A DNA stretch of 64,000 nucleotides from an uncultured Candidatus Saccharibacteria bacterium (lineage in GTDB: Bacteria > Patescibacteriota > Minisyncoccia > Phycocordibacterales > CAYSCM01), in contig CAYSCM010000001.1 in the NCBI GenBank assembly GCA_964429815.1, positions 256,001-320,000 of the forward strand. Direction: 5' to 3'. Each line of letters begins with the position of its first letter. Position 1 is the first letter of the stretch. This document shows, piece by piece, positions 1 to 44,956 of the stretch. The translations under genes and the position numbers were made by a program. Below the pieces are notes generated by a model. The model was not told where the DNA came from. It searched no databases and was given only the letters and a program-made list of their open reading frames with translations.

Positions 1-20
1 TCCGTATCATCGATATCGTT

Positions 21-10388: not shown

Positions 10389-10434
10389 CAATACTGCGGT
10401 TAACAACGTTCTTTCATAAACAGAGGAGAGAGTC

Positions 10435-10953
10435 ATGCTGGACACGTTCGGCCGCTCGATCATGGCCCTTTCGAACTCGTCCTCCAGTGGTTACTGGGCC
10501 AGCTGTCGCAGGTGGGAAGGCGTCATTGCCTTCCTCGTCATCATCGATGAAGAAAAGAAAAAGACGGCGGACGTACTGCTCCATCCGCACGACATCGAGC
10601 CTGTGCTCTATTTCTCTCTTACGGTCCCGGGCGTTCGTATCACGGAAAAGAACCGCGAGTCCGTAGGGAAGCTCGCTAGGATGGTCAACGCGCGCTTGCC
10701 GTACATCTCGATAAGCCCGGAGACGGGCGATGGCACGCTCTTCTGCTATTACGTATGGCGCTACCCCCGCATCATCGACGCCAAAGAATTCCGCGATAAC
10801 GTCGAGGAAATCACCGAAGATTTCGGTGAGGTCATGCGAACATTCCACCGCTATTTCCTCTGGCTCGTGCGCGGGAAAATAAGCCTCGAGGATCTGGAGA
10901 AGCTTCTCACTGAGCGCTTCCCCCTTGAGGGAGGCCCCCCGAGGCTCTCCTGA
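10435..10953 (+). CDS. hypothetical protein (YbjN-like fold suspected)
   Basis: GAGGAGAGAG RBS upstream of ATG 10435; protein-like composition; preferred over GC-rich antisense ORF 10414..11007. Confidence 0.5.
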   Translation: MLDTFGRSIMALSNSSSSGYWASCRRWEGVIAFLVIIDEEKKKTADVLLHPHDIEPVLYFSLTVPGVRITEKNRESVGKLARMVNARLPYISISPETGDGTLFCYYVWRYPRIIDAKEFRDNVEEITEDFGEVMRTFHRYFLWLVRGKISLEDLEKLLTERFPLEGGPPRLS

Positions 10954-10967
10954 AATCAAGACGCTCC

Positions 10968-11005
10968 CCGCGCGGCCCCTTGCGGCCGCGCGGTTTCTCT
11001 TTTTC
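10968..11005 (+). terminator. rho-independent terminator
   Basis: CCGCGCGGCC-cctt-GGCCGCGCGG then tttctctttttc. Confidence 0.75.
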
Positions 11006-11011
11006 ATTCAG

Positions 11012-12427: not shown

Positions 12428-12805
12428 ATGGCAAGCGAAACCACCAAAAAACCCCGCGCACCTCGCACCAAAAAGGCCACTAAGGCCCCCGAGGCGCCGA
12501 TTCAGAAGCTTCGCATACGGGTGCGCGCCTACGAACACAAGCTTCTCGACGCGTCCGTAAAGCAGATCATCGACACGGCAATACGCTTCGACGCGACGGT
12601 CGTGGGGCCGGTTCCGCTTCCTACGGAAATTAAAAAATATACCGTCAATCGCTCGACCTTCGTCCACAAGAATGCGCGAGAGCAGTTCGAGATGCGGGTC
12701 CACAAACGAATGATGGATATCATGAATCCCAATCCGAAGGTGATCGAGGCACTCACGAACCTCAATCTTCCCTCCGGCGTCAACATCGACGTAAAGATGG
12801 TCTAA
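12428..12805 (+). CDS. rpsJ: 30S ribosomal protein S10 with ~25-aa Lys/Pro/Ala-rich N-terminal extension
   Basis: IRIRVRAYEHKLLDASVKQIIDTA... S10 core. Confidence 0.9.
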   Translation: MASETTKKPRAPRTKKATKAPEAPIQKLRIRVRAYEHKLLDASVKQIIDTAIRFDATVVGPVPLPTEIKKYTVNRSTFVHKNAREQFEMRVHKRMMDIMNPNPKVIEALTNLNLPSGVNIDVKMV

Positions 12806-12865: not shown

Positions 12866-12894
12866 TTGACAAAATGGCCTAATTCGTGCTATAA
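12866..12894 (+). promoter_or_regulatory. consensus sigma70 promoter (TTGACA-17-TATAAT)
   Basis: TTGACA 12866-12871, TATAAT 12889-12894. Confidence 0.65.
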
Positions 12895-12962
12895 TGTGTG
12901 CAGTATTGAACATCCTGCACTGCAGGCCTGCACCTCAAGGTTTAGGGGTAGGAGTAACTCCG

Positions 12963-13352
12963 ATGACGACCGCCGAAATCAGGATCAGTGGCAAGCGCCC
13001 CCCGAACACTCATGGCATCATGCACCTCTATATTGAGGGACAGGCCAAGCCCATCTACATCTGGACGCCTGAGGAGATCGACTGGCTCTGCGGCCATGCC
13101 GTTCACCGGCTAGACCACGCGTATGACGCTTATCTAAGGGATCTGTCCTGTCCGGAATCGATCGAGAATCCCGAGCTTCGCGAAGCAGTCCGTGTCTGCC
13201 AGAAAGAGCGAGCGGAGAAGGTGCCCCACGAAAAACGCACCTGGCTCCTTCTCTCGCCGAGAAAGATTCGCTATTCGGCGTGGGCGGGGACGCTCGTCCT
13301 TGTCTCGAACCGTGCCCGCATCGAGGAGCTCCTCCAGCTCGCGGCGGCCTAA
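12963..13352 (+). CDS. hypothetical protein (129 aa)
   Basis: AGGAGT RBS 7 nt upstream; own promoter and terminator; inserted between rpsJ and rplC. Confidence 0.55.
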   Translation: MTTAEIRISGKRPPNTHGIMHLYIEGQAKPIYIWTPEEIDWLCGHAVHRLDHAYDAYLRDLSCPESIENPELREAVRVCQKERAEKVPHEKRTWLLLSPRKIRYSAWAGTLVLVSNRARIEELLQLAAA

Positions 13353-13482: not shown

Positions 13483-13926
13483 ATGAGAAACTCGACCTTC
13501 GGGAAACTCCGCCTCCTGCCTTGGGAGACACGATACACGCCGTTCTCATACTTCATCCGAAATGAAAGAAAAAAGAGAAACGTGTCGCTCAGGGCCTTCT
13601 ATAAATTTCTTGTTGACAGGCACGGAGGACCAATTGTCGGGGTCGATAATTCTCTAATCAGCAGATGGGAAACAGCAAATGCGGAACCGTCCGCTGATGC
13701 AGTGCAAGTTCTTGCAATTATTCTCGAAGTTCCACTGCAGGCGCTAGCATCTCTCATTCCGAGCGCGTGGTCGTTACTACTAATCGAGGTAGCGGATATC
13801 GTGCACATCCTCGCGGAAAGAAAATCCCAGGAGAACATGACGATTGGAGAGATGGTCCGTATGTTGCAGGACCATATTCGCCACAAATACTGGGATGAAA
13901 GCAACGATAGGATTTCACTCAAGTAA
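13483..13926 (+). CDS. XRE-family helix-turn-helix protein
   Basis: AGGAGT RBS; SLISRWETANAEPSADAVQVLAIILEV matches HTH_3 (Cro/C1) motif. Confidence 0.55.
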   Translation: MRNSTFGKLRLLPWETRYTPFSYFIRNERKKRNVSLRAFYKFLVDRHGGPIVGVDNSLISRWETANAEPSADAVQVLAIILEVPLQALASLIPSAWSLLLIEVADIVHILAERKSQENMTIGEMVRMLQDHIRHKYWDESNDRISLK

Positions 13927-15843: not shown

Positions 15844-16686
15844 ATGAAAAGCCATAACCCCACTTCAAAAGGCCGCCGTCAGCTTGTCTCGATCGAGTAC
15901 GGCAAATACCTCACCGCAAACGAGCCGTGGAAAGGACTCGTCTCGGGCGGCAAGCGCCGCGTCGGGCGCAACGCGTTCGGCCGTATCACGACTCGCCACA
16001 AGGGCGGCGGCCACAAGCGCCTCTTCCGCGATGTCGACTTCATGCTCACCAAGTTCGATATCCCGGCGCGCGTCGAGACTATTGAATACGACCCGAACCG
16101 CACGGCCTTTATCGCCCGCATCGTCTATCGCGATGGCGAGCGCCGCTACGTGCTCGCGAGCAAATCCATGCGTGTGGGCAATGAACTCCTCATTTCGGAG
16201 AAAGCCCCGGTGAAGCTTGGCAACCGCATGCCGCTTCGCAACATGCCGGTCGGCACTTTTGTCTACAATGTCGAGATTCAGCCGAAGGGGGGCGCCAAAC
16301 TCATCCGCTCGGCAGGGAACACTGCGGAAATCGTCGCGCAAGATGGTGACTACACAAACCTCAAGATGCCTAGTACCGAAGTGCGTCGCGTGCTCTCGGG
16401 GGCGTGGGCGACGATCGGTGAAGTATCCAACGATGAGAACAAGCTCCGCTCACTCGGAAAGGCCGGACGCTCCCGCTGGCTCGGCATTCGCCCGACCGTG
16501 CGCGGCTCCGTCATGAACCCGGTTGATCACCCACACGGCGGCGGCGAGGGTCGCCAGGGACGTGGTCGCCGACGCGCCATCTCCATCTACGGCAAACCGA
16601 CCGGCAAGGGCCAGAAGAGCCGCCGACCGAAGAAGTACAGCAACGGCATGATTCTCTCCCGACGTCGTGTCGGAAAAAACCGCTAA
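15844..16686 (+). CDS. rplB: 50S ribosomal protein L2
   Basis: full-length L2 (GRNAFGRITTRHKGGGHKR..., PHGGGEGR). Confidence 0.95.
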   Translation: MKSHNPTSKGRRQLVSIEYGKYLTANEPWKGLVSGGKRRVGRNAFGRITTRHKGGGHKRLFRDVDFMLTKFDIPARVETIEYDPNRTAFIARIVYRDGERRYVLASKSMRVGNELLISEKAPVKLGNRMPLRNMPVGTFVYNVEIQPKGGAKLIRSAGNTAEIVAQDGDYTNLKMPSTEVRRVLSGAWATIGEVSNDENKLRSLGKAGRSRWLGIRPTVRGSVMNPVDHPHGGGEGRQGRGRRRAISIYGKPTGKGQKSRRPKKYSNGMILSRRRVGKNR

Positions 16687-16694
16687 AACTGATG

Positions 16695-16730
16695 AAAAAC
16701 GCCGCGACTTCCGTCGCGGCGTTCGTGTTC
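16695..16730. terminator. hairpin terminator between convergent rplB and minus-strand gene
   Basis: AACGCCGCGAC-ttcc-GTCGCGGCGTT; T-run on minus side. Confidence 0.65.
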
Positions 16731-17391
16731 ACCAGTACGCAAAGGGATCGCGCCAGTCTGGGTAGTTATCATGGAGCCATCGGTATATTGGAGGATGCAG
16801 TTGCGGAAGTCTAGCTGCACGGCGTTTACTGTCTCTCGCCGCGTCTTCCTCAAGAAGGCGTGTATCTTCATCGGTTATTCCGTCGAACTTTCTTTCCTTC
16901 CGTTTTTCGACGTGCACAATGCCAATAAACTCGGCTGGTTTCTCTGGCTCAACAAAGGTACGGTCGATTACCACGTCGATGATATAGCCTCTTGGCCGTT
17001 CGATGGGAGCGGTGTGAATGTTGGGCGGATTCAAAGCGTAGCGACAATAGACTTGAGCGCTCTCTAAACCAAGTCGATCGTCGCTGAATTCCCGGTGTAT
17101 ATGTACCCGGAGATTCCCTTTCCTATCGAGAACATGAAGAATTCCAGAATCAGGCCTTCCGTAGGCATCGTATCCTTCGACCGCTCTCCAACCGGATGGG
17201 AGCACTACATCGAATCTCACATAATTTGGTGGCGGATTAGCCAACTCGTTAAAGAGTTGTCCATTGAGATCAAATGCTCTCAGCACCTGGAAACCTCCTC
17301 GTTGGAGCGTTTCGCGCATTCCCTTCAGTCCCTGCCAAGGGAATTCTGCATTTTCAAGAGTAAACCAGGGGAGTACTACGGTACCAGACAT
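16729..17391 (-). CDS. hypothetical protein (220 aa), antisense insertion within r-protein cluster
   Basis: AAGGAG RBS upstream of ATG at 17391; no recognisable family. Confidence 0.55.
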   Translation of the reverse strand: MSGTVVLPWFTLENAEFPWQGLKGMRETLQRGGFQVLRAFDLNGQLFNELANPPPNYVRFDVVLPSGWRAVEGYDAYGRPDSGILHVLDRKGNLRVHIHREFSDDRLGLESAQVYCRYALNPPNIHTAPIERPRGYIIDVVIDRTFVEPEKPAEFIGIVHVEKRKERKFDGITDEDTRLLEEDAARDSKRRAARLPQLHPPIYRWLHDNYPDWRDPFAYW

Positions 17392-17468
17392 GTAATCTCC
17401 TTTTGTTTGTGGATCAGTCCTGAGGTGACATTAAATTTAAACAGCGCTTTTTGCAATAAAAGAAATTC

Positions 17469-17494
17469 ACCCCGCACTTCTTTGTGCGGGGTGA
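17469..17494 (-). terminator. rho-independent terminator
   Basis: CACCCCGCAC..TGCGGGGTG; minus-strand T-run follows. Confidence 0.7.
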
Positions 17495-17499
17495 GTTCG

Positions 17500-17847
17500 T
17501 CATCCGGTCTCGGACGGCACGCTGTTTTCGAGCTGTGAGCCGACCAGAACGAACGAATTAACGAAGATGATGAGAATACCCGCGAGAATGCTAAGAAACC
17601 ACAGCGGGCTCGAGAGGAGTATAATGAAGAGCGTGTAGAGTAGGGTCGCCGTGACGGAAAGCGATGAAAGCCAGGCACTTTCCTCGTCCCAATCCCACTC
17701 CCACTTCACGAAGCTTTCAGCGACCAGATACAGGACGAGGGCCGGCCCGCCAAAGAAAAAGAGGAAAAATCTCGCCCCATCGATCGCCTGAGTCATCATG
17801 GCGTCGAGGGTCATCAGCACGTGCGCCATCGTCCACGGTTTCGTCAT
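17500..17847 (-). CDS. hypothetical membrane protein (115 aa)
   Basis: AAGGGAGA RBS upstream of internal ATG 17847; 3 TM segments. Confidence 0.5.
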   Translation of the reverse strand: MTKPWTMAHVLMTLDAMMTQAIDGARFFLFFFGGPALVLYLVAESFVKWEWDWDEESAWLSSLSVTATLLYTLFIILLSSPLWFLSILAGILIIFVNSFVLVGSQLENSVPSETG

Positions 17848-17937
17848 AGGTTCTCCCTTCACGGTCTCTTGCGGAACTGTAGATCTTCTTGGGATTTTTG
17901 CAAGAATTTGCAAGAATATGAGGGATCCGAAAGAAAA

Positions 17938-17973
17938 ACGCCGCGATCTGATGCATCGCGGCGGGGACCAAAA
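17938..17973 (-). terminator. rho-independent terminator
   Basis: CGCCGCGAT-ctgatgc-ATCGCGGCG; minus-strand tttttctttc follows. Confidence 0.7.
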
Positions 17974-17975
17974 AT

Positions 17976-18224
17976 TCAGGCAGCGTCCTTTTCGCCGGGG
18001 AATAGAGGGTCGCTAAGCCTGTACTTAGTGATTCCGTCGCGGCGGTAGAGCGTGCCGGGTGCGTAGCCATGGCCTCGCTTCAGGCAGTAGGCCGCGACGT
18101 AGGCCCTCGCTTCCCCTTCGCTCTCGGCCGAAAAGTACTCGAGTTTTTTCTCTGCACTTCGAGCTCCCGAGACGGGATTTCGGAAAAATTTTACGTAGTT
18201 GAACTCGAACTCCTGTCGGGGCAT
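17976..18224 (-). CDS. hypothetical small protein (82 aa)
   Basis: AAGGAG RBS 6 nt upstream of ATG at 18224 (MPRQEFEFNYVKF...). Confidence 0.5.
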   Translation of the reverse strand: MPRQEFEFNYVKFFRNPVSGARSAEKKLEYFSAESEGEARAYVAAYCLKRGHGYAPGTLYRRDGITKYRLSDPLFPGEKDAA

Positions 18225-18289
18225 GGAAGGCTCCTTCAGTTGCGCTCCGGCCACTCTAGACCCGTTCTGTCTCCCTCGCAAGCCTCCGT

Positions 18290-18318
18290 TTGACAGTGCG
18301 GGCTCGCGCGAGTAGTAT
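18290..18318 (+). promoter_or_regulatory. sigma70 promoter for rpsS block (TTGACA-17-TAGTAT)
   Basis: TTGACA 18290-18295, TAGTAT 18313-18318. Confidence 0.55.
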
Positions 18319-18358
18319 GTTGCCACAAGCTCTTCAGCGAGCTTTTTTGATTGAAATT

Positions 18359-18706
18359 ATGAGCCGATCGCTCAAAAAGGGACCCTACGTCGACGAGAAA
18401 CTCCTCAAGAAAATCGAGGGGAAGAAGCCCCAGTCAACCGGGGTTATTAAAACGTGGGCTCGCCGCTCCGTCATCGCTCCTACCATGGTCGGCTTCATCT
18501 TTGGCGTCTACAACGGCAAGCAGCACATCGACGTGCTGGTGACCGAGGAAATGGTAGGGCATCGCCTGGGGGAGTTCTCGCCGACCAAGAAGTTCACCCG
18601 CCATGGCGGCAAGATGCAGAAGGAGCTTGAAATTAAGAAGAAGGAGGCTGAAATTGCCGCCGCGCAGGCCGCAAAGACCGCTGCCGCGGATGCTGGCAAG
18701 AAATAA
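18359..18706 (+). CDS. rpsS: 30S ribosomal protein S19 with ~45-aa Lys/Ala-rich C-terminal extension
   Basis: [20 protein letters not shown]...[17 protein letters not shown]19 core. Confidence 0.9.
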
Positions 18707-21356: not shown

Positions 21357-21878
21357 ATGCTCGAACTCATCAAAAAACAAAACGATGCGCACAAGGCGCT
21401 CTCCTACAAAAACGTAATGCAGACACCAAAGATCGAGAAGGTCATCGTCTCGATCGGCGTTGGCTCTGTGAAGGACAAGAAAAAATTTGACGTCATAACA
21501 GACCGCCTCGCGAAGATCACGGGCCAAAAGGCCGCTCCGCGCGCCGCCAAGAAATCGATTGCAACCTTTAAGCTGCGCCAGGGGGACGTCGTCGGGTTCC
21601 AAATCACGCTCCGAGGCTCGCGCATGAAGAATTTTCTCGAACGCCTTCTCGCGGTGGCGCTTCCACGTACCCGCGACTTCCGTGGGCTTGATCCTAAGGC
21701 TATCGACGAGATGGGTAACCTCACCATCGGCATTAAGGAGCACACTATTTTCCCTGAAACCTCTGACGAGGATCTCAAGGACGTCTTTGGATTTGCCGTG
21801 ACGGTGGTTACTACCGCCAAAAGTCGCGACGAGGCACTGAAGTATCTCACCTACCTCGGATTTCCTTTCAAGAAATAA
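21357..21878 (+). CDS. rplE: 50S ribosomal protein L5
   Basis: L5 core; start trimmed to MLELIKK. Confidence 0.9.
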   Translation: MLELIKKQNDAHKALSYKNVMQTPKIEKVIVSIGVGSVKDKKKFDVITDRLAKITGQKAAPRAAKKSIATFKLRQGDVVGFQITLRGSRMKNFLERLLAVALPRTRDFRGLDPKAIDEMGNLTIGIKEHTIFPETSDEDLKDVFGFAVTVVTTAKSRDEALKYLTYLGFPFKK

Positions 21879-21949
21879 AAAGCCCTAGCTTTCAGAGCAA
21901 TTTGTATTTTTTGGGCTTCAGCTTAGGTCGAGCTTTCGGACCGGAGCAG

Positions 21950-21979
21950 TTGACAATCTCCACTATTATATAGTATAAT
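21950..21979 (+). promoter_or_regulatory. consensus sigma70 promoter (TTGACA-18-TATAAT) driving DGR target gene
   Basis: TTGACA 21950-21955, TATAAT 21974-21979; ~135-nt leader to AAGGAGGT RBS. Confidence 0.6.
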
Positions 21980-22117
21980 TCTTTCCATAACACTAGTTCC
22001 TTGATTTGGTTTTGCCCTGGCAGGAAGAGCTTTCGTTGAGAGAATTTCCTGCTGTGGCAAAGCCCGTTCGGGCCGAGTCTGAACAGCACTGTAAAAACGC
22101 TCAAAGGAGGTAATCTC

Positions 22118-22759
22118 ATGAGCGAACAACAGATCGCCAAGCTCGCCGGCGCATTGGTGGAGCACCAACGGCATTTCGGTGCCATGCCAACCGAGGATCG
22201 CCAGTGGGCGATCCAGAATACTGAAGCGGCCATCGGTCTATTCGCCGTTGCAGTGAAGAACCGCGACAACGGCCAGACACAGAAACCAAGGACGCTCTTG
22301 AAGTTCGTGGCGAGCGTAAGCATCGCCGCGATCGAAGGCTTCAAAGTCTCCGAGAACTTCGAGGAGGGGAAGTTGGGCCCGGTCAGAATCTATTGGCTCG
22401 GCGACGACTTCAAGAAGCACTTCGGCCGCAAGACCGAGAGCGCTTTGGAAGCAGTCGAGCTGAAGGTTCACACTCTGACCAAGGCTTCGCTCGATGCCCC
22501 GATCATCGCGGAACTCGCGGGCAATGCGGAGATCACGATGGGCCAGTTCTTCGCTCTGCTATCGAAGCAGGGCAAGGGCGAGAGCGGGCCGCTCCTTACG
22601 AACGGCTACGCCAACATCGCCTACATCCGCGACGACGAGGGCGTCCTATGGGCGGTGGACGCCCACTGGCACGCCGGCCGCGGGGGCTGGGACGTCTACG
22701 CCGACTCAGTCGCCTACCCGGGCGAGTGGGACCGGGGTCGCCAGGTTCTTTCCCGCTGA
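22118..22759 (+). CDS. DGR variable (target) protein, 212 aa, VR at C-terminus
   Basis: strong AAGGAGGT RBS; C-terminal 36 codons form VR; no signal peptide visible. Confidence 0.8.
   Translation: MSEQQIAKLAGALVEHQRHFGAMPTEDRQWAIQNTEAAIGLFAVAVKNRDNGQTQKPRTLLKFVASVSIAAIEGFKVSENFEEGKLGPVRIYWLGDDFKKHFGRKTESALEAVELKVHTLTKASLDAPIIAELAGNAEITMGQFFALLSKQGKGESGPLLTNGYANIAYIRDDEGVLWAVDAHWHAGRGGWDVYADSVAYPGEWDRGRQVLSR
22649..22756 (+). repeat. DGR variable repeat (VR)
   Basis: 92/108 identical to TR; all 16 substitutions map to TR adenines (11 AAC and 2 GAC codons). Confidence 0.9.
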
Positions 22760-23097
22760 TTCTCGAACCCTTAAGCCCTCGGCCTGAGATCCTTTGACCC
22801 TCTGAAACTTTGCGAAGCAATTTGCGAAGGAGTAGGAGGGTCTTCTATTTTTTATTTTGATATAGTAAGACGTGAGGAGTGCTACTGATGCGGCGGCTAC
22901 GGCTTCCGCACAGCGCCTCGAGTATCTGTATCGCCAGAATCACGTCGGCTAAGGCTTGCGCGAGAGCGCGTGCAGGTACTCTTAAAAAAGATAAAGAATC
23001 GGTGCCTCATGCTGGCGGACTTCAAGGTCCCACATACGATACAGCTCGGAGAGTATTCGATGGGTGGTGTTATTGATGGCTTAAGGCACACAACGGA

Positions 23098-23206
23098 TGG
23101 GCGGTGAACGCCAACTGGAACGCCGACAACGGGGGCTGGAACGTCAACGCCAACTCAGTCGACAACCCGAACGAGTGGAACCGGGGTAACCAGGTTCTTT
23201 CCCGCT
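23098..23206 (+). repeat. DGR template repeat (TR), 11 AAC codons
   Basis: TGGGCGGTGAACGCCAACTGGAACGCCGACAACGGGGGCTGGAACGTCAACGCCAACTCAGTCGACAACCCGAACGAGTGGAACCGGGGTAACCAGGTTCTTTCCCGCT. Confidence 0.9.
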
Positions 23207-23570
23207 ATTCTTTTCTTCCCCCGCCCTTCGGCGGGGTTTTGCTTTCGAGGCCCCTCTTCCATCCCCCAACCATCCGACCCAGTTCGTGCACTTTTTCCGA
23301 GAGAGCAGCATACCTCTTTGTGTCAAGCGCGCGCAGCTCCCATGCGACTCGTAAAAGGAATTTCGCGGTGTCTATTTTTTTGAGTGTGTGAAAAAGTGTC
23401 GGCACTTTTTCACCCGAGCCCTGATAACTTGCGGTGAAGAGAAGTTCCAGCGTGTCTATGAGCGAAAAGTCGATGCGCTCACCGAGTGTATACCGGGCGT
23501 TTTTTGGAAAGTTGTTCCTGCACTCATGCCAGATTTTATATACTGCAACAGCATGTTCAATAACCGGCAA
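23205..23570 (-). CDS. avd: Avd-like accessory variability determinant (four-helix-bundle / 23S rRNA IVS protein family)
   Basis: 121 aa, basic; FPKNARYTLGERIDFSLIDTLE motif resembles FPKxExYxLxxQxxRAxxS of PF05635; stop codon abuts TR end; opposite strand to TR/RT. Confidence 0.6.
   Translation of the reverse strand: MPVIEHAVAVYKIWHECRNNFPKNARYTLGERIDFSLIDTLELLFTASYQGSGEKVPTLFHTLKKIDTAKFLLRVAWELRALDTKRYAALSEKVHELGRMVGGWKRGLESKTPPKGGGRKE
23218..23246 (+). terminator. GC hairpin plus T-run immediately 3' of TR
   Basis: CCCGCC-cttc-GGCGGG then gttttgcttt. Confidence 0.5.
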
Positions 23571-23590
23571 AAGTCGTTGGGGGGGTCGCT

Positions 23591-24592
23591 TTGAGGTCGC
23601 AACTCGCTCATACGTATGACGATATCATCTCGCTAGAAAATCTCCTTGCCGCATGGCAGGAATTCGTGCGCGGGAAGCGCAAAAAATGCGACGTGCAAGA
23701 GTTTCAGTTTCGGCTCGTGGACAATATTCTTGAGCTCTACCGTGACTTGAAAGAGAAAACATACACGCATGGGCCGTACCACCCTTTTAAAATAAGCGAC
23801 CCTAAACCCCGCGACATCCACAAGGCGAGCGTACGCGACCGGCTCCTCCACCACGCAATATATCGGAAACTCTATCCATTCTTCGACAAAATTTTCATTG
23901 CCGATTCGTACTCATGCAGGAAAGGCAAAGGAACACACAAGGCGATGAACCGTTTTCGTTCCTTTGCATACAAGGCGAGCTTAAATCACACAAAAACGCT
24001 TTGGGTGCTCAAGTGCGACATCAAAAAGTTCTTTGCATCAGTCGATCAGCATGTTCTCCTGGAGATTATTAGGCGCTGCATTTCTGACACCGACATCCTC
24101 TGGCTCATCGAGCGAGTCGTGCAGAGTTTCAATCCCAGCAGGGAGGGCACGGGTCTCCCGCTCGGCAATCTCACCTCGCAGCTTTTAGTGAATGTGTATA
24201 TGAACGAGTTTGACCAGTTTGTGAAGCGCACCCTCAAAGCGAAATACTACATCCGTTACGCCGATGATTTTGTGATTTTCTCGCAAGATGCGAAATGGCT
24301 CCAACAAATATGCAAATATATCAGCATATTCTTACGTGAACGGCTGAAACTCGAATTGCACCCTAATAAAGTATCGATCACAACGCTCGCATCCGGTATC
24401 GATTTTCTCGGCTGGGTGAATTTTCCTGATCATCGCGTGCTACGCACCTCGACAAAGCGGCGGATGTTGAAGCGAATGACTGGTGAGCAATCTAAAGAGA
24501 TCATCAAACCGTATTTAGGGCTTCTTCAACATGGGAACAGCAAAAAGCTGCAATTGAAAATCTTGTTTGACACAGCAGAGGCAATCAAGTAA
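23591..24592 (+). CDS. DGR-type reverse transcriptase
   Basis: 333 aa; [20 protein letters not shown] (DGR [ILV]GxxxSQ in place of group II QGxxxSP), [14 protein letters not shown] box. Confidence 0.9.
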
Positions 24593-24734
24593 GCTCATCC
24601 CACAAAGCCGAGTAGGGCTTTTCTTTTGGCAAGTGCTAAACCGTCTACGCGGTCGCATACTCCCAGAAGAAAGGGAAGAATACTTCTCTTTTTTCACTCC
24701 ACACGTGGGGGATTGCCAGAAGTTCGTATACCAC

Positions 24735-24920
24735 ATGGCAAAAACCTCAGTCATCGTTCGAAGCAAACGAAAGCCCAAGTTTAAGTCTCGGGTTGTTCGT
24801 CGCTGTTTCAAGTGCGGACGCAAGCGCAGCTACATGCGCGACTTTGACCTGTGCCGCATCTGCTTCCGCGAACTCGCGAACGAAGGCATGATCCCGGGCA
24901 TTAAGAAAAGCTCCTGGTAA
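24735..24920 (+). CDS. rpsN: 30S ribosomal protein S14 type Z (zinc-binding)
   Basis: 61 aa, CFKCGRK...CRIC zinc ribbon. Confidence 0.9.
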
Positions 24921-29969: not shown

Positions 29970-30224
29970 CGGAAGCATACCGAGAAAGTCGCTGGCGAGA
30001 CGGGACGCTCTACCTCGTCGCTGCGGCGCCTTGGCGCGCGCTCGCTCGATTTCCTGCTCGAGCGCGCGCTGCCCTTCGAGCTTTTTCCGCCTTCTTTCTT
30101 TTCGTCGCTCCCACAGCGAGTGGATAGTGGTGCGCATGAAACCCTCCAAAAAACGTTTCAGCGACTATACCGCAGGTGTGCATCTGTGCAAAGTCGCCGA
30201 TACGAGCGGGGTATACTAAGGTGC

Positions 30225-32945
30225 ATGGAAAAGATGGCTGCTGTCGAGGGAGTATTTCAAACCCCCGAGGAAGAAATAGCGCATTTACGTGAGCAGCTCA
30301 CACGGCACGAGATAGCCGCGATCGTCGGAACCTCCGGGCCGCCCGAGCCGCTCCAGCAGGTAATTCGCGCCTACGCGCAAAAGCCTCCTCACGAGGTCAT
30401 ACCCGGCCCCTCCATGCTTCCCGAAGGGCGTGCAGGCGAGATCGCCCTCGAGCTAAAACCCGAGTCGCATGACGAGAAGATGGCGGAGCTTCTTGGTATT
30501 CTCCAGGAACACGGAATAAAAAACGCTCTCACGGTCGCGGAGAAACTCGGTCCCCACGTTGAAGACGATTTCCACCGTTTTTTGGTCGAGTATCTACGCG
30601 AGGGGTTTTCCGTAAAAGGGTTCCACGAAGGAGGGGCGCTCTGGCGGCCGCTCCATATGAGGCTCTATGAGGTGCGCATATCACAGAAAGAAGAGGAGGC
30701 CGGCAAGGACCTCAAGAAAGCCCTCTCAGGAATGGAACAGCTCTACGCCGCACTCCTCGCCTCCTCCGGCAAGCGTGAGTTTCGCAAAGATTTCTTTACG
30801 CTCGAGATCGCGGTCGGAAATTCCTCGGAGGATATCGTCTTCTATGTTTCCGTGCTCGAGAGCAAAGCCGACCTCCTTCAAAAGCAGACACTCGCGCTCT
30901 TTCCGGGCGCGCGGATCGAGCTCCTGCGCGATGATTATAATATTTTTAACGAAAAAGGCGCCTCACTTGCTTCCTATGGCTCTCTTGCCCGGTCGCCGGT
31001 CTATCCGCTTCGGACCTATGATGAGTTCGACCACGATCCGCTAAGTGGCATCATTGCGGCGTTCTCCCGGATGCGCAAGGAGGGCGAGGGGGCCGCGTTC
31101 CAGCTCTCCGTCTCGCCCGTCGGAGACGAGTTCAATGCACGGTTTAAAAAGGCGGCAGTAGACCTCGAGAAGGGAGTCCCCGCGCCGAAGGCGACCAGGG
31201 TCGCCCTCTCCACGGGAGAGAAAATTGTCTCCGGCATCAGCAAACTCATCGGGGGAGAGGGCAAAAAGAGCGATACCCAGAAGCCGGTCGACTCCGTTGC
31301 GCTCGAGGAGGTAAAGAAAAAAATAGGCAGCCCCATAGTTCTCGCCGGCATTCGTCTCGTCGTTTCGGCCGAAAACGAAATGCGCGCGAGCGCCATCCTC
31401 TCCGACCTTGAAGCATCGTTTGGTCAATTCAGTGCGGCCCAGGGCAACGCGCTTTCGTTCAAACGGGTCCCTCGGAAAGCCCTCACGGCATTTCTTTCCG
31501 ACTTCTCCTTTCGCTCATTCGATGAGGGGAAGGGCATGCCCCTTAGCCTGCGTGAACTCACCAGCCTCTACCACCTCTCCGGTGCAGCGCTTGTCCCCAG
31601 CCGCGAGGTGAAGCAGACGCGCTTCAAAACGGCTCCGGCGCCGCTTGAGCTTGTCGAGGAAGGGATACGCCTCGGCAGCAACCGTCATGGAGGCGAGGAG
31701 CGTCCCGTGCGGTTTGCCGATACCGATCGACTCCGCCACCTCTACGTCATAGGGCAAACGGGCACCGGCAAGTCTGTGTTCCTCAAGAACATGGTCATCC
31801 AAGATATCGCACGAGGGGCCGGGGTGTGCTACATCGATCCGCATGGCTCGGATATCGAGGAAGTGCTCGGCGCGGTGCCGCCGGAGCGCGAGGGAGACGT
31901 CATCTACTTCAATCCGGCCGATCCTGAGCGCCCCTTGGGCCTCAATATGCTCGAGTACGATGCGCGCTTCCCCGAGCAGAAAACGTTCGTAGTCAACGAG
32001 CTTCTCTCCATTTTCAATAAGCTCTTCGACATGAAGGTCGCGGGAGGGCCCGCATTCGAGCAGTACTTCAGAAATTCAGCGCTTTTGGTTATGGAGCACC
32101 CGCAAAGCGGAAACACCCTTTTTGATATCGGGCGAGTTCTTGCGGACCGCGGCTTCAGGCAGATGAAGCTTTCTCACAGCCAAAATCCAACCATCCAACA
32201 ATTTTGGCGCACCGCTGAGGAGACGACCGGCGAGCAATCGCTTGCGAACTTCGTTCCCTACATCACCAATAAGTTCGACGTCTTTACGACCAACGACATC
32301 ATGCGCCCCATCATCGCGCAGGAGCGCTCGGCGCTCAACTTCCGGGAAATAATGGACTCGAAAAAGATTCTCTTGGTGAATCTCGCCAAGGGGCGTCTCG
32401 GCGACATCAACGCGAACCTCATCGGGCTTGTGCTCGTCGGCAAAATACTCATGGCCGCGCTCTCGCGAGTCGACTCATTCGGTGCAGATCTCCCGCCGTT
32501 CTACCTCTACATTGACGAGTTTCAGAACATCACCACTGACTCCATAGTTTCCATCCTCTCAGAGGCGCGTAAGTACGGCCTTTCGCTCACCATCGCGCAT
32601 CAATTCATCAAGCAAATACAGGAAAATATCCGCGACGCGGTCTTCGGGAACGTGGGGAGCCTCTGTACATTTCGGGTTGGAAGCGACGATGCGCAAGAGC
32701 TCGAAAAACTTTTCGCGCCCACCTTCAAGGCTATGGATCTTCAAAATCTCGACAACTACAACGCGATCCTCAAACTCCTCTCCGGTGGAAAACCCATGGT
32801 GCCGTTTTCCCTCGCCACCGCAGCGCCGGCTGCGACCGACCGCGACACGGCCGCCCGCATTAAGAAATCCTCCGCGCTTCGCTTCGGGCGCCCCAAGTTC
32901 GAGATTGAAAAAGAAATTGCCGCACGCTATAGTCAGCCCCTATGA
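30225..32945 (+). CDS. large soluble P-loop ATPase with VirD4/TraG/TrwB-like C-terminal domain (type IV secretion DNA-binding domain family)
   Basis: Walker A VIGQTGTGKS, Walker B FYLYIDEFQN, TIAHQ motif; ~500-aa N-terminal domain of unknown function, no TM segments. Confidence 0.6.
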   Translation: MEKMAAVEGVFQTPEEEIAHLREQLTRHEIAAIVGTSGPPEPLQQVIRAYAQKPPHEVIPGPSMLPEGRAGEIALELKPESHDEKMAELLGILQEHGIKNALTVAEKLGPHVEDDFHRFLVEYLREGFSVKGFHEGGALWRPLHMRLYEVRISQKEEEAGKDLKKALSGMEQLYAALLASSGKREFRKDFFTLEIAVGNSSEDIVFYVSVLESKADLLQKQTLALFPGARIELLRDDYNIFNEKGASLASYGSLARSPVYPLRTYDEFDHDPLSGIIAAFSRMRKEGEGAAFQLSVSPVGDEFNARFKKAAVDLEKGVPAPKATRVALSTGEKIVSGISKLIGGEGKKSDTQKPVDSVALEEVKKKIGSPIVLAGIRLVVSAENEMRASAILSDLEASFGQFSAAQGNALSFKRVPRKALTAFLSDFSFRSFDEGKGMPLSLRELTSLYHLSGAALVPSREVKQTRFKTAPAPLELVEEGIRLGSNRHGGEERPVRFADTDRLRHLYVIGQTGTGKSVFLKNMVIQDIARGAGVCYIDPHGSDIEEVLGAVPPEREGDVIYFNPADPERPLGLNMLEYDARFPEQKTFVVNELLSIFNKLFDMKVAGGPAFEQYFRNSALLVMEHPQSGNTLFDIGRVLADRGFRQMKLSHSQNPTIQQFWRTAEETTGEQSLANFVPYITNKFDVFTTNDIMRPIIAQERSALNFREIMDSKKILLVNLAKGRLGDINANLIGLVLVGKILMAALSRVDSFGADLPPFYLYIDEFQNITTDSIVSILSEARKYGLSLTIAHQFIKQIQENIRDAVFGNVGSLCTFRVGSDDAQELEKLFAPTFKAMDLQNLDNYNAILKLLSGGKPMVPFSLATAAPAATDRDTAARIKKSSALRFGRPKFEIEKEIAARYSQPL

Positions 32946-42732: not shown

Positions 42733-42805
42733 GGGCGTGTAGCTCAACGGTTAGAGCACCAAGCTTATACCTTGGTGGTTCCTGGTTCGAATCCAGGCAC
42801 GCCCA
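42733..42805 (+). tRNA. tRNA-Ile with anticodon TAT (UAU)
   Basis: cloverleaf: acceptor GGGCGTG/CACGCCC, D-arm GCTC..GAGC, anticodon stem CCAAG/CTTGG loop CTTATAC, T-arm CCTGG TTCGAAT CCAGG; no encoded CCA. Confidence 0.8.
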
Positions 42806-44956
42806 CTATTCGAAGTGAAGGTTGGCAGACGCTTCGGCGGCTTTTGTAGCGACGTGTGGGTACTTAGCGAGGGTAGGATCCTCCTCAACAAGCGCCTCGG
42901 CCTCCGTGCGGGCCGCCTCTACCATTTTGAGATTGCTCATCGCTTCCATCGCGATATCCGAGATGCCCCACTGACGCCCTCCGCCGAGCTCGCCCGCACC
43001 ACGCAGCTTGAGATCAAATTCGGCGAGTTCAAAGCCATTTTTTGCTGTTTTGATGGCGCGTAAACGATCCGTGGTCTGCTTTCCCTTAGAATCCGCAAAC
43101 ACGTAGCAATATGCTTGATGTGTGGAGCGAAGCACGCGGCCACGAAGCTGGTGGAGTTGGGCCAGTCCAAAACGTTCCGCCCCCTCGATGACAATTACCG
43201 TCGCATTCGGAACATTCACGCCCACCTCGACAACCGACGTTGCAACCAATATCTGGATTTTATTCGCAGCGAATTGCTCCATAACGGAGTCCTTGTCCGA
43301 CGCACTCATTTTGCTGTGGAGTATGCCAACATCGAATTCCGGAAATACTTCATCAGCGAGGCGTTTCGCCTCTTTTTTCACCGATTTAGCGAGAAGAGCG
43401 AGCTCCTTGGTGGGATCGGGCTCGTCAATGCGCGGGCAAATGACGTAGGCTTGGCGGCCCGCTTTGAGCTCGGAGCGGATTTTTTCGTAGACACTTTCGC
43501 GCTCACTTGGTGCGACGATTTCTGTCACTATCGGCTTGCGTCCCGCGGGCATCTCGTCGAGGAGTGAGAGGTCGAGATCGCCGTAAATGGTAAGGGCAAG
43601 TGTGCGGGGGATGGGGGTCGCCGTCATAGAGAGAAGGTGAGGTGCAATGTCGTCCTTACGTACCAGTTTTTTCCGCTCCCTCGTGCCGAAGCGATGCTGC
43701 TCGTCGATGATGACGTAGGCAAGATTCTTAAATTTAACCGCCTTTTGAATGAGAGCGTGGGTGCCGATGAGGATGGGTATTTCGCCATTAGCGACCCACC
43801 TGAGAAGCTGTGCGCGGGAGATATCCGTAGCACCCTCGCGGTTAACTTTTGAGGGGAACTTTTTACAGCCCGAGCTCGTGAGGAGGCCGATGTTGATGGG
43901 AAGGTGCTTAAATAGCGCTATGAAAGATTCAAAGTGCTGCTTGGCGAGGATTTCGGTCGGTACCATGTAGGCGACCTGAAGATTGCCAAAATTCTGCCCC
44001 GCCGGTCGGGTCATCACGGTGGCGTACGCGGTCGCAGCGGCAACCGCGGTTTTCCCCGACCCCACATCGCCCTCGAGAAGGCGCGACATAGGGTGTCCCG
44101 ATTTCATATCAGACACAATGTTTTCAATAGATTTTTTTTGTGCACCGGTGAGGGGGAAAGAAAAGCGTGACGTAAATTCACTGATGTCGCGCTGCTCGAG
44201 TGCAATTTTGAACGATTGATGGTGTTCGTACTCACGACGCTCCTTAAACTTTCCGACCTGAATAAAAAATACTTCCTCAAAGGCGAAGCGCTTTTTTGCC
44301 GAAATTGAATCCCTAAGCGTTTTTGGGGTGTGGATCCACACCAGAGCGGCGGCTTTGGTGGGGAGGTGGTAGCGCTCGATGATCTCGGCGGGAATTGGGT
44401 CGACGATTTTCTCCAGAATGCCGCTTTTGAGGACACGGTCGATGGCATAGTAGAACCACTTCGAGGTGATGCCTCGGCTCTCGGGGTAGATGGGGTAGAG
44501 GCTCGAGGCGCTCATATCGGAAAACATGGGCCCCGTGCCGGCCTCGTTTATGTGAGCGGCTTCGATTTCGGGATTACCAAAGTACACACCCGATTTTCCC
44601 GAGCCGACTTTGCCGGCAATTTTTACAAAACTCCCGTCGGGATGCATTTTCGCGATGTAGGGCTGGTTGAACCAAATGAGTTTGACCTTGCCGCTCCCGT
44701 CCTCGAGGTAGCCCTCCGCAATGGGGACCTTGGAGCGGAAGGCGCGGCGTGTTTTGGGCCCTTTGAGAACGCCGTAGAGCGTTGCGGCCTCACCCGGGGC
44801 GAGCGTCGCCACCGTCTTCGTCCTCCCTAAATTTTCGTAGCGGGTCGGGTAGTGGGAGAGGAGGTCGTCGATCGTTGCGATGCTGAGTTTCCTGTGGGCC
44901 CGTTTTTGGACTTCTGAAATACGAAAATGTTTCTCGACGGCGTCGGTGAGTTCCAT
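42806..44956 (-). CDS. recG: ATP-dependent DNA helicase RecG
   Basis: wedge domain plus DEQHRFG and helicase motifs. Confidence 0.9.
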   Translation of the reverse strand: MELTDAVEKHFRISEVQKRAHRKLSIATIDDLLSHYPTRYENLGRTKTVATLAPGEAATLYGVLKGPKTRRAFRSKVPIAEGYLEDGSGKVKLIWFNQPYIAKMHPDGSFVKIAGKVGSGKSGVYFGNPEIEAAHINEAGTGPMFSDMSASSLYPIYPESRGITSKWFYYAIDRVLKSGILEKIVDPIPAEIIERYHLPTKAAALVWIHTPKTLRDSISAKKRFAFEEVFFIQVGKFKERREYEHHQSFKIALEQRDISEFTSRFSFPLTGAQKKSIENIVSDMKSGHPMSRLLEGDVGSGKTAVAAATAYATVMTRPAGQNFGNLQVAYMVPTEILAKQHFESFIALFKHLPINIGLLTSSGCKKFPSKVNREGATDISRAQLLRWVANGEIPILIGTHALIQKAVKFKNLAYVIIDEQHRFGTRERKKLVRKDDIAPHLLSMTATPIPRTLALTIYGDLDLSLLDEMPAGRKPIVTEIVAPSERESVYEKIRSELKAGRQAYVICPRIDEPDPTKELALLAKSVKKEAKRLADEVFPEFDVGILHSKMSASDKDSVMEQFAANKIQILVATSVVEVGVNVPNATVIVIEGAERFGLAQLHQLRGRVLRSTHQAYCYVFADSKGKQTTDRLRAIKTAKNGFELAEFDLKLRGAGELGGGRQWGISDIAMEAMSNLKMVEAARTEAEALVEEDPTLAKYPHVATKAAEASANLHFE

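Follow-up and report, generated by a model that had tools for sequence, protein, structure and literature searches.

A complete diversity-generating retroelement (DGR) was identified in the 2.86-kb interval (21879-24734) between rplE (ribosomal protein L5) and rpsN (S14) of a 64,000-nt window, the whole stretch of DNA analysed here, which carries the str-S10-spc ribosomal protein cluster on its + strand. All positions are window coordinates; the genome is a metagenome-assembled genome (MAG), and its relatives are called Paceibacteria (Kaiserbacteria/Zambryskibacteria-like) of the Patescibacteria or Candidate Phyla Radiation (CPR). The element is probably an ordinary DGR which occupies one of two "cargo slots" typical of the ribosomal protein cluster in this lineage. 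The S10-spc cluster would be split at the L2/S19 and L5/S14 junctions into blocks, each with its own promoter and structured 5' untranslated region (5'-UTR); varied accessory genes would gather and turn over between these blocks, and the DGR would be the present L5/S14 cargo of this species. The DGR itself is routine, and what is added here is the lineage break points and a covarying RNA domain within the cassette.

The relatives comprised 80 loci (L003-L082) of GTDB species representatives, found with an L5 query, whose L5 was 58-72% identical to that of the window, 72% being the top identity among these representatives. Intergenic gaps were measured at all 19 junctions of the L3-to-SecY stretch. 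Seventeen of the 19 were tight, 16 of them without any gap of at least 300 nt and one, L16/L29, with two. At L2/S19 a gap of at least 500 nt was present in 28 of 48 loci (median 825 nt). At L5/S14 such a gap was present in 24 of 62 loci, reaching at least 1 kb in 16 of them and 4,678 nt at the maximum, and in 10 further loci none of the genes from S14 to SecY was found within 6 kb 3' of L5. Both of these lineage-open junctions were interrupted in the window too. The cargo of the relatives' open junctions lay on both strands and included a DKNYY protein, a PKD/Ig-like surface protein, TerC/DUF475, two S-adenosylmethionine (SAM) methyltransferases, PaaX-like and MGS-like proteins and many open reading frames (ORFs) without a family, and no DGR was among it. 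No published account of L2/S19 and L5/S14 as recurrent open junctions was found in a full-text literature search.

The initial annotation had regarded an L5-to-S14 spacing of this size as unusual for bacteria in general, which is correct, and had taken the DGR for a disruption inside the operon, which does not agree with a junction that is typically open in the lineage. Accessory genes normally separating L5 and S14 in related genomes had been named there as the observation that would speak against it, and this is what the synteny comparison returned, since the 24 relatives above have the open junction and other genes occupy the slot in the nearest relative.

This nearest relative is a metagenomic one (L171; P0106, with contigs of 402 kb and 120 kb), with L5 83% identical and the same gene order as the window. 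Homology between its DNA and that of the window is interrupted at S10/L3, at L2/S19, at L5/S14 and after secY. Its L5/S14 slot is filled by two ORFs on the + strand (330 and 136 aa), neither with a Pfam or NCBIfam match, and contains no reverse transcriptase (RT) gene. The homology stops at 21879 and resumes at about 24563, within the final RT codons, so the DGR cassette as slot cargo, bounded by these breakpoints, covers 21880-24562 (about 2.68 kb). The stretch shared downstream of the cassette comprises a promoter-like site TTGACA-17-TAAGCT, a hairpin with a T-run and the remainder of the rpsN leader. In the relative this promoter-like site is intergenic.

In the window the rpsN promoter-like site was located at 24568-24596 (+), where it is overlapped by the 3' end codons of the RT gene, so that the -10 hexamer begins with the RT stop codon TAA. 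A corresponding site, TTGACA-17-TAGTAT, was located upstream of rpsS at 18290-18318 (+); between it and the rpsS start (18359) the 5'-UTR has a hairpin (18327-18344), and the nearest relative shares both the site and the hairpin. The scan of relatives for TTGAC[A/T]-16..18-TAnnnT within 220 nt upstream covered those in which a promoter would fit. Promoter-like sites were found 5' of rpsN in 17 of 23 relatives, vs 1.3 expected from shuffles, and 5' of rpsS in 35 of 39, vs 2.6 expected.

The 5' leader of rpsN (24600-24734, +) contains the hairpin with its T-run (24604-24630) and a long-range helix which pairs 24622-24632 with 24715-24724. Its minimum free energy, calculated over 24600-24737, was -49.7 kcal/mol vs -31.8 kcal/mol for shuffles (z = -4.97). 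The long-range helix closes just 5' of the start codon, and the inner hairpin is followed by U6. The leader had no Rfam match and may be an autoregulatory or attenuator leader of ribosomal protein genes. According to the initial annotation, rpsN and the genes behind it would need read-through from the RT gene or a new promoter. This is not borne out, as the site TTGACA-17-TAAGCT and the leader are shared with a relative that has no DGR and similar sites recur in the relatives scanned. The rpsN promoter would thus be older than the arrival of the DGR, and L2/S19 and L5/S14 appear to be boundaries between transcription units in this lineage, which would place the DGR between operons.

The second slot of the window lies between rplB and rpsS, where the cargo (16687-18289, -) is bounded by a break of homology with the nearest relative at 16677 and its resumption at 18280. 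Three ORFs are present, all on the minus strand (16729-17391, 17500-17913 and 17976-18326), and minus-strand terminator-like hairpins were observed 3' of slot ORFs at 17494-17467 and 17963-17939. None of the three ORFs had a Pfam or NCBIfam match, and no homologue was found in the loci of other organisms that were compared, the only matches being the genome's own contigs.

The DGR cassette starts with a sigma-70-type promoter-like site, TTGACA-18-TATAAT (21950-21979, +), which matches the consensus at 12 of 12 positions and lies 138 nt 5' of the target gene. The initial annotation had credited the cassette with its own consensus promoter, and this site bears it out. The other target or DGR loci do not share it, their homology beginning at about 22049-22080. 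The target ORF (22118-22759, +) encodes a protein of 213 aa, in which an N-terminal three-helix bundle is followed by a C-type-lectin/FGE-like domain with the variable repeat (VR). No match to this protein was found in Pfam or NCBIfam. The protein is small and apparently cytoplasmic, and by inspection neither a transmembrane segment nor a signal sequence was evident.

The VR (22648-22757, +) and the template repeat (TR; 23097-23206, +) are each 110 nt long, and the VR sits at the C-terminus of the C-type-lectin-like target protein, as in DGRs. Among the 28 adenines of the TR, 16 are substituted in the VR. These are the only 16 mismatches between the two repeats; all of them fall in codon position 1 or 2, and there is no mismatch at a non-adenine position. 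The two repeats end in an identical GC-rich stretch of 14 nt, GGTTCTTTCCCGCT, which occurs at 22744-22757 (VR end) and 23193-23206 (TR end) and nowhere else in the window. This shared 3' end looks like an initiation of mutagenic homing (IMH) element.

The avd gene (23205-23570) is on the minus strand, convergent with the TR and divergent from the RT gene, from which it is spaced by 20 nt. Its product matched Pfam bAvd (6.2e-14) above the cut-off and NCBIfam DivGenRetAVD (1.5e-20) with 73.4 bits, slightly short of the 80-bit cut-off. The RT gene (23591-24592, +) has a TTG start and encodes 333 aa with an RVT_1 domain (4e-26); NCBIfam has no model specific to DGR RTs. The motifs YADD and LGNLTSQ are intact and common with the RT of a locus from the L5-anchored set (L011). 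The RT was 61-71% identical to 80 metagenomic RTs, each of which adjoins an Avd gene, a TR or both. All cassette parts listed in the initial annotation are real, and the placement of a complete DGR between the rplE end at 21878 and the rpsN start at 24735 was accurate; what it had left unmentioned is the orientation of avd. Judged from these sequence features, the DGR is apparently functional and an ordinary member of a clade restricted to Patescibacteria.

A conserved structured RNA domain of about 100 nt (22975-23100, +) was found directly 5' of the TR. Its helix P1 pairs 23004-23013 with approximately 23075-23084 and encloses two inner helices. RNAalifold predicted 21 pairs from 31 loci, 18 of which showed compensatory double changes. 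In a counting test 94.7% of cells were paired vs 73.7% in shuffles, and double-change cells numbered 152 vs 41, with none of 500 shuffles reaching the observed value in either case; slid controls gave 35-47% paired cells. The domain was assigned to the + strand because G-U pairs are frequent. A covariance model gave exactly one copy per DGR, with 63 matches in total, about 30 of them in loci outside the seed. Copies were located at L004 8365-8488, L011 10814-10948 and L168 2675-2802 and in about 58 of the RT loci (L083-L162), and the domain was present in every DGR of the clade whose region 5' of the TR is visible. The model had no match at stand-alone target homologues or in the nearest relative, and an Rfam search of 21800-24800 with E values up to 1 gave no relevant family. 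The DGR papers compared (Roux et al. 2021, Wu et al. 2018) contain no description of an RNA domain 5' of the TR or of the clade-wide layout.

Directly 3' of the TR is a terminator-like hairpin, CCCCGCC-CTTC-GGCGGGG with a T-run (23219-23246, +), which overlaps the final avd codons on the opposite strand, and the position of hairpin and T-run 3' of the TR is conserved in the clade alignment. The scan found no + strand terminator-like site between the target stop and the TR. The DGR RNA would be a discrete unit in which the structured 5' domain and the TR are joined through a 12-nt linker to the terminator hairpin; it would arise as the 3' part of the target mRNA or be initiated separately.

Under the cargo-slot interpretation, the target mRNA would be driven by the promoter at 21950. 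With no terminator intervening, the transcript probably runs through the RNA domain and the TR and would end at the hairpin 23219-23246. RT and Avd would then reverse-transcribe the TR with adenine-specific errors, and the cDNA would replace the VR, by which at least 16 codon positions of the C-type-lectin-like ligand-binding face could be rewritten. rpsN and the downstream genes would be transcribed from the site at 24568-24596, present before the DGR and overlapping the RT stop, and the location itself may be neutral for the DGR. An insert co-transcribed with S10-spc is not what the predicted signals suggest, as the cassette has its 12/12 promoter-like site and the hairpin after the TR, and rpsN its own promoter-like site.

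Several observations weigh against this interpretation. In about one third of the relatives the L5/S14 gap is short (about 25-110 nt), which means that the split is not universal. The -10 hexamer of the rpsN site, TAAGCT, matches at only 3 of 6 positions and lies below the scan threshold, and the promoters and terminators are predictions from consensus or conservation. The scan gave no strong + strand terminator after rplE, which makes read-through from rplE into the target possible, and a relaxed promoter scan returned nothing convincing for RT or avd. The VR has the same consensus in all four assemblies and thus gives no sign of ongoing diversification.

The surroundings of same-clade DGRs were compared in a sample of 80 metagenomic loci (L083-L162), those with the 61-71% identical RTs. 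The layout with avd on the minus and RT on the plus strand was found in all related loci with a visible avd. Some of these DGRs are next to translation genes. In one locus (L141) the order is tuf, rpsJ, target, avd, RT and rplC, which is the S10/L3 junction, the identity of S10 being confirmed; in another (L114) the RT ends 100 nt upstream of rpsS, in a third (L160) the RT is followed by a small ORF and then tuf, and two more (L098 and L159) lie 3.5 and 7 kb upstream of fusA. In the L5-anchored set, two loci (L011 and L004) carry a same-clade DGR immediately 3' of secY. In each cluster-adjacent DGR the VR/TR mismatches are overwhelmingly at TR adenines, and target and RT, where visible, share the strand of the ribosomal protein genes. 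EF-Tu/EF-G matches beside the RTs of four further loci (L110, L123, L125 and L146) were dropped, as they were other GTPases with about 30% identity.

The RT loci touching the translation cluster numbered 5 of 80 vs about 3.2 expected, the expectation being based on 548 kb of visible flank and an assumed genome of about 800 kb. Those directly upstream of a cluster gene numbered 3 of about 62 informative loci vs about 2.3 expected. The L5-sampled loci, 80 of about 12 kb, contained 2 DGRs, and enrichment was significant in neither sample. DGRs of this clade recur in the ribosomal protein cluster without being enriched there. Target homologues with 59-65% identity were found alone between HIT and recJ genes in two loci (L166 5265-5906 and L169 9001-9627), with no avd, RT or TR nearby; these copies may be remote DGR targets or non-diversified paralogues. 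Another target homologue (L168, 63%) is accompanied by Avd and RT, with cupin and GH18 genes as neighbours. The genome of the window has HIT directly next to recJ, with the site empty (cf. L174 6837-8971). Since the closest target homologues lie elsewhere and the genome's own HIT/recJ site is empty, the cassette evidently relocates.

Other explanations of the location were weighed against this background. An assembly or binning artefact, by which a DGR contig was joined to ribosomal protein contigs, has practically no chance of being right. Logan contigs do break near the VR/TR repeat, one (L164) ending at 23275 and another (L001) starting at 23290, which would be in keeping with such an artefact, but a single 26.5-kb Logan contig from SRR12313480 (two overlapping loci, L163 and L165) spans rplC to map with 100% identity over both junctions, and the two broken contigs, from SRR12313479, cover one junction each at 100% identity. 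The proteins are also encoded on a 501,704-nt NCBI contig, and a third run, SRR12313482, likewise carries this genome. A chimera at the junctions, which the initial annotation had named as something that would speak against it, is therefore not borne out, independent assemblies from other runs carrying the same junctions. Delivery by a phage, a transposon or an integrative element that targets the site is very improbable as well. It would fit the differing contexts in which the target/TR/avd/RT cassette occurs among related genomes and a 10-nt inverted repeat, AAAAGCCCTA / TAGGGCTTTT, at the two junctions, with a chance expectation of about 2.5%. The slot holds DGR parts alone, though, and the right arm of the inverted repeat lies in the hairpin of the rpsN leader, a hairpin shared by the DGR-free relative. 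The target-site duplication or att-like sequence suggested in the initial annotation did not appear, no direct repeat of at least 8 nt being present at the junctions. A site-specific mobile element is unlikely in the absence of any integrase, transposase or phage gene and of such a direct repeat, the inverted repeat being explained by the leader. A plausible mechanism would be that cargo is exchanged when the conserved genes on either side recombine.

Functional coupling would mean that selection placed the DGR in the cluster, either so that expression of target or TR RNA tracks growth-rate-controlled transcription of ribosomal protein genes or on account of an effect of the target protein on the translation apparatus. 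It is suggested by the co-oriented same-clade DGRs at S10/L3, 5' of rpsS, 5' of tuf and after secY described above, and by the want of a strong terminator 3' of rplE, and it is given a small chance. The counts given above show no enrichment, the majority of homologous DGRs and targets sit elsewhere, the slot of the nearest relative holds unrelated genes, and the cassette has a promoter and a terminator of its own, as far as these can be predicted. The link to growth-rate control proposed in the initial annotation is likewise opposed by the cassette's own promoter, the strong terminator-like hairpin after the TR and the antisense avd. A bolder version holds that the slots are selected "expression docks" whose cargo is swapped by flank recombination, that DGRs are repeatedly captured there as read-through from the upstream ribosomal protein block ties target and TR RNA synthesis, and with it diversification, to growth, and that the RNA domain is a new RT/Avd recognition module defining a class of DGRs; we regard it as a speculative and rather unlikely proposal.

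Several systems in the literature come close to the DGR of the window. In CPR genomes, Wu et al. 2018 (PMC5758913) recorded five DGRs among whose parts ribosomal protein genes were interleaved, and a cellular DGR clade restricted to Patescibacteria (clade 2), with targets lacking recognisable domains, was described by Roux et al. 2021 (PMC8144416). The DGR of the window resembles these CPR cellular DGRs (Roux clade 2; the "CPR set" of Wu) in being chromosomal and not phage-borne, in its small domain-less target with a C-terminal VR, in having Avd and RT, and in its adenine-specific TR-to-VR changes. It differs in that its L5/S14 site can be placed in lineage context as a putative promoter-bounded slot, and in the layout of its clade, namely target, structured RNA, TR, terminator, avd(-) and RT(+).

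With the prototype from Bordetella phage BPP-1 (mtd-avd-TR-brt), the window DGR shares RT, Avd, adenine mutagenesis between TR and VR, a target of C-type-lectin fold whose VR is C-terminal, and VR and TR 3' ends that have an identical GC-rich stretch. In BPP-1 the genes are co-oriented, avd is upstream of the TR, and the functional RNA consists of the avd 3' end, the TR and a spacer, whereas the window DGR is cellular and has avd inverted and downstream of the TR, a structured domain 5' and a terminator hairpin 3' of the TR. In this clade avd is inverted and the BPP-1 RNA model cannot apply directly, and the RNA domain offers biochemists who work on such DGRs a concrete element.

Strong conservation of the ribosomal protein gene cluster has been documented (Brandis 2021, PMC8046335). 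Accessory inserts of other bacterial groups (tusDCB, bfd-bfr, nrdHEF, ilv-leu) are alike in being small sets at operon-operon boundaries, with insertion later relaxing synteny. Their breaks are at classical operon borders, whereas the recurrent ones of Paceibacteria, L2/S19 and L5/S14, correspond to positions within the E. coli S10 and spc operons; a large proportion of the species have them filled, with cargo that changes rapidly. The "most conserved operon" would thus be modular in this lineage, with two promoter-delimited break points at which accessory genes turn over. This matters for binning or phylogeny by ribosomal protein synteny and for assumptions of operon continuity. Open slots would also account for the finding, left unexplained by Wu et al. 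2018, that ribosomal protein genes stand beside CPR DGRs.

The cluster of the window starts, on the + strand, with rpsL (6105), rpsG (6648), fusA (7971), tuf (11067) and rpsJ (S10, 12428-12805), followed by rplC (13984), rplD, rplW and rplB (end 16686). The next block extends from rpsS (18359-18706) through rplV, rpsC, rplP, rpmC, rpsQ, rplN and rplX to its final gene rplE (21357-21878; Pfam Ribosomal_L5 and L5_C). The 61-aa form of S14, encoded by rpsN (24735-24920; Pfam Ribosomal_S14, 3e-21), opens the last block, in which rpsH, rplF, rplR, rpsE, rplO, secY, adk and map follow, also on the + strand; no L30 gene was found between rpsE and rplO in the window. Taken with the best matches, this absence assigns the genome to the Patescibacteria/CPR, class Paceibacteria (Kaiserbacteria/Zambryskibacteria-like).

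Further interruptions were observed outside the two slots. The interval between fusA and tuf contains an ORF of unknown function (10414-11007, -). Between rpsJ and rplC there are two ORFs (12894-13352 and 13483-13926, both +), of which the latter encodes a helix-turn-helix protein (HTH_3) and not S10; at the same site the nearest relative has other small ORFs. Downstream of map, where infA-rpmJ-rpsM usually follow, the window has an ORF for a 941-aa protein (30120-32945, +) that weakly matches HerA/TraG/type IV secretion coupling-protein ATPase domains, and then ndk; the nearest relative has ndk at the position after map, without the 941-aa gene. A gathering-score Rfam scan of the whole window returned one tmRNA and two tRNAs only, and a tRNA-Ile with the anticodon TAT (UAU) was predicted by ARAGORN and Rfam at 42733-42806 (+).

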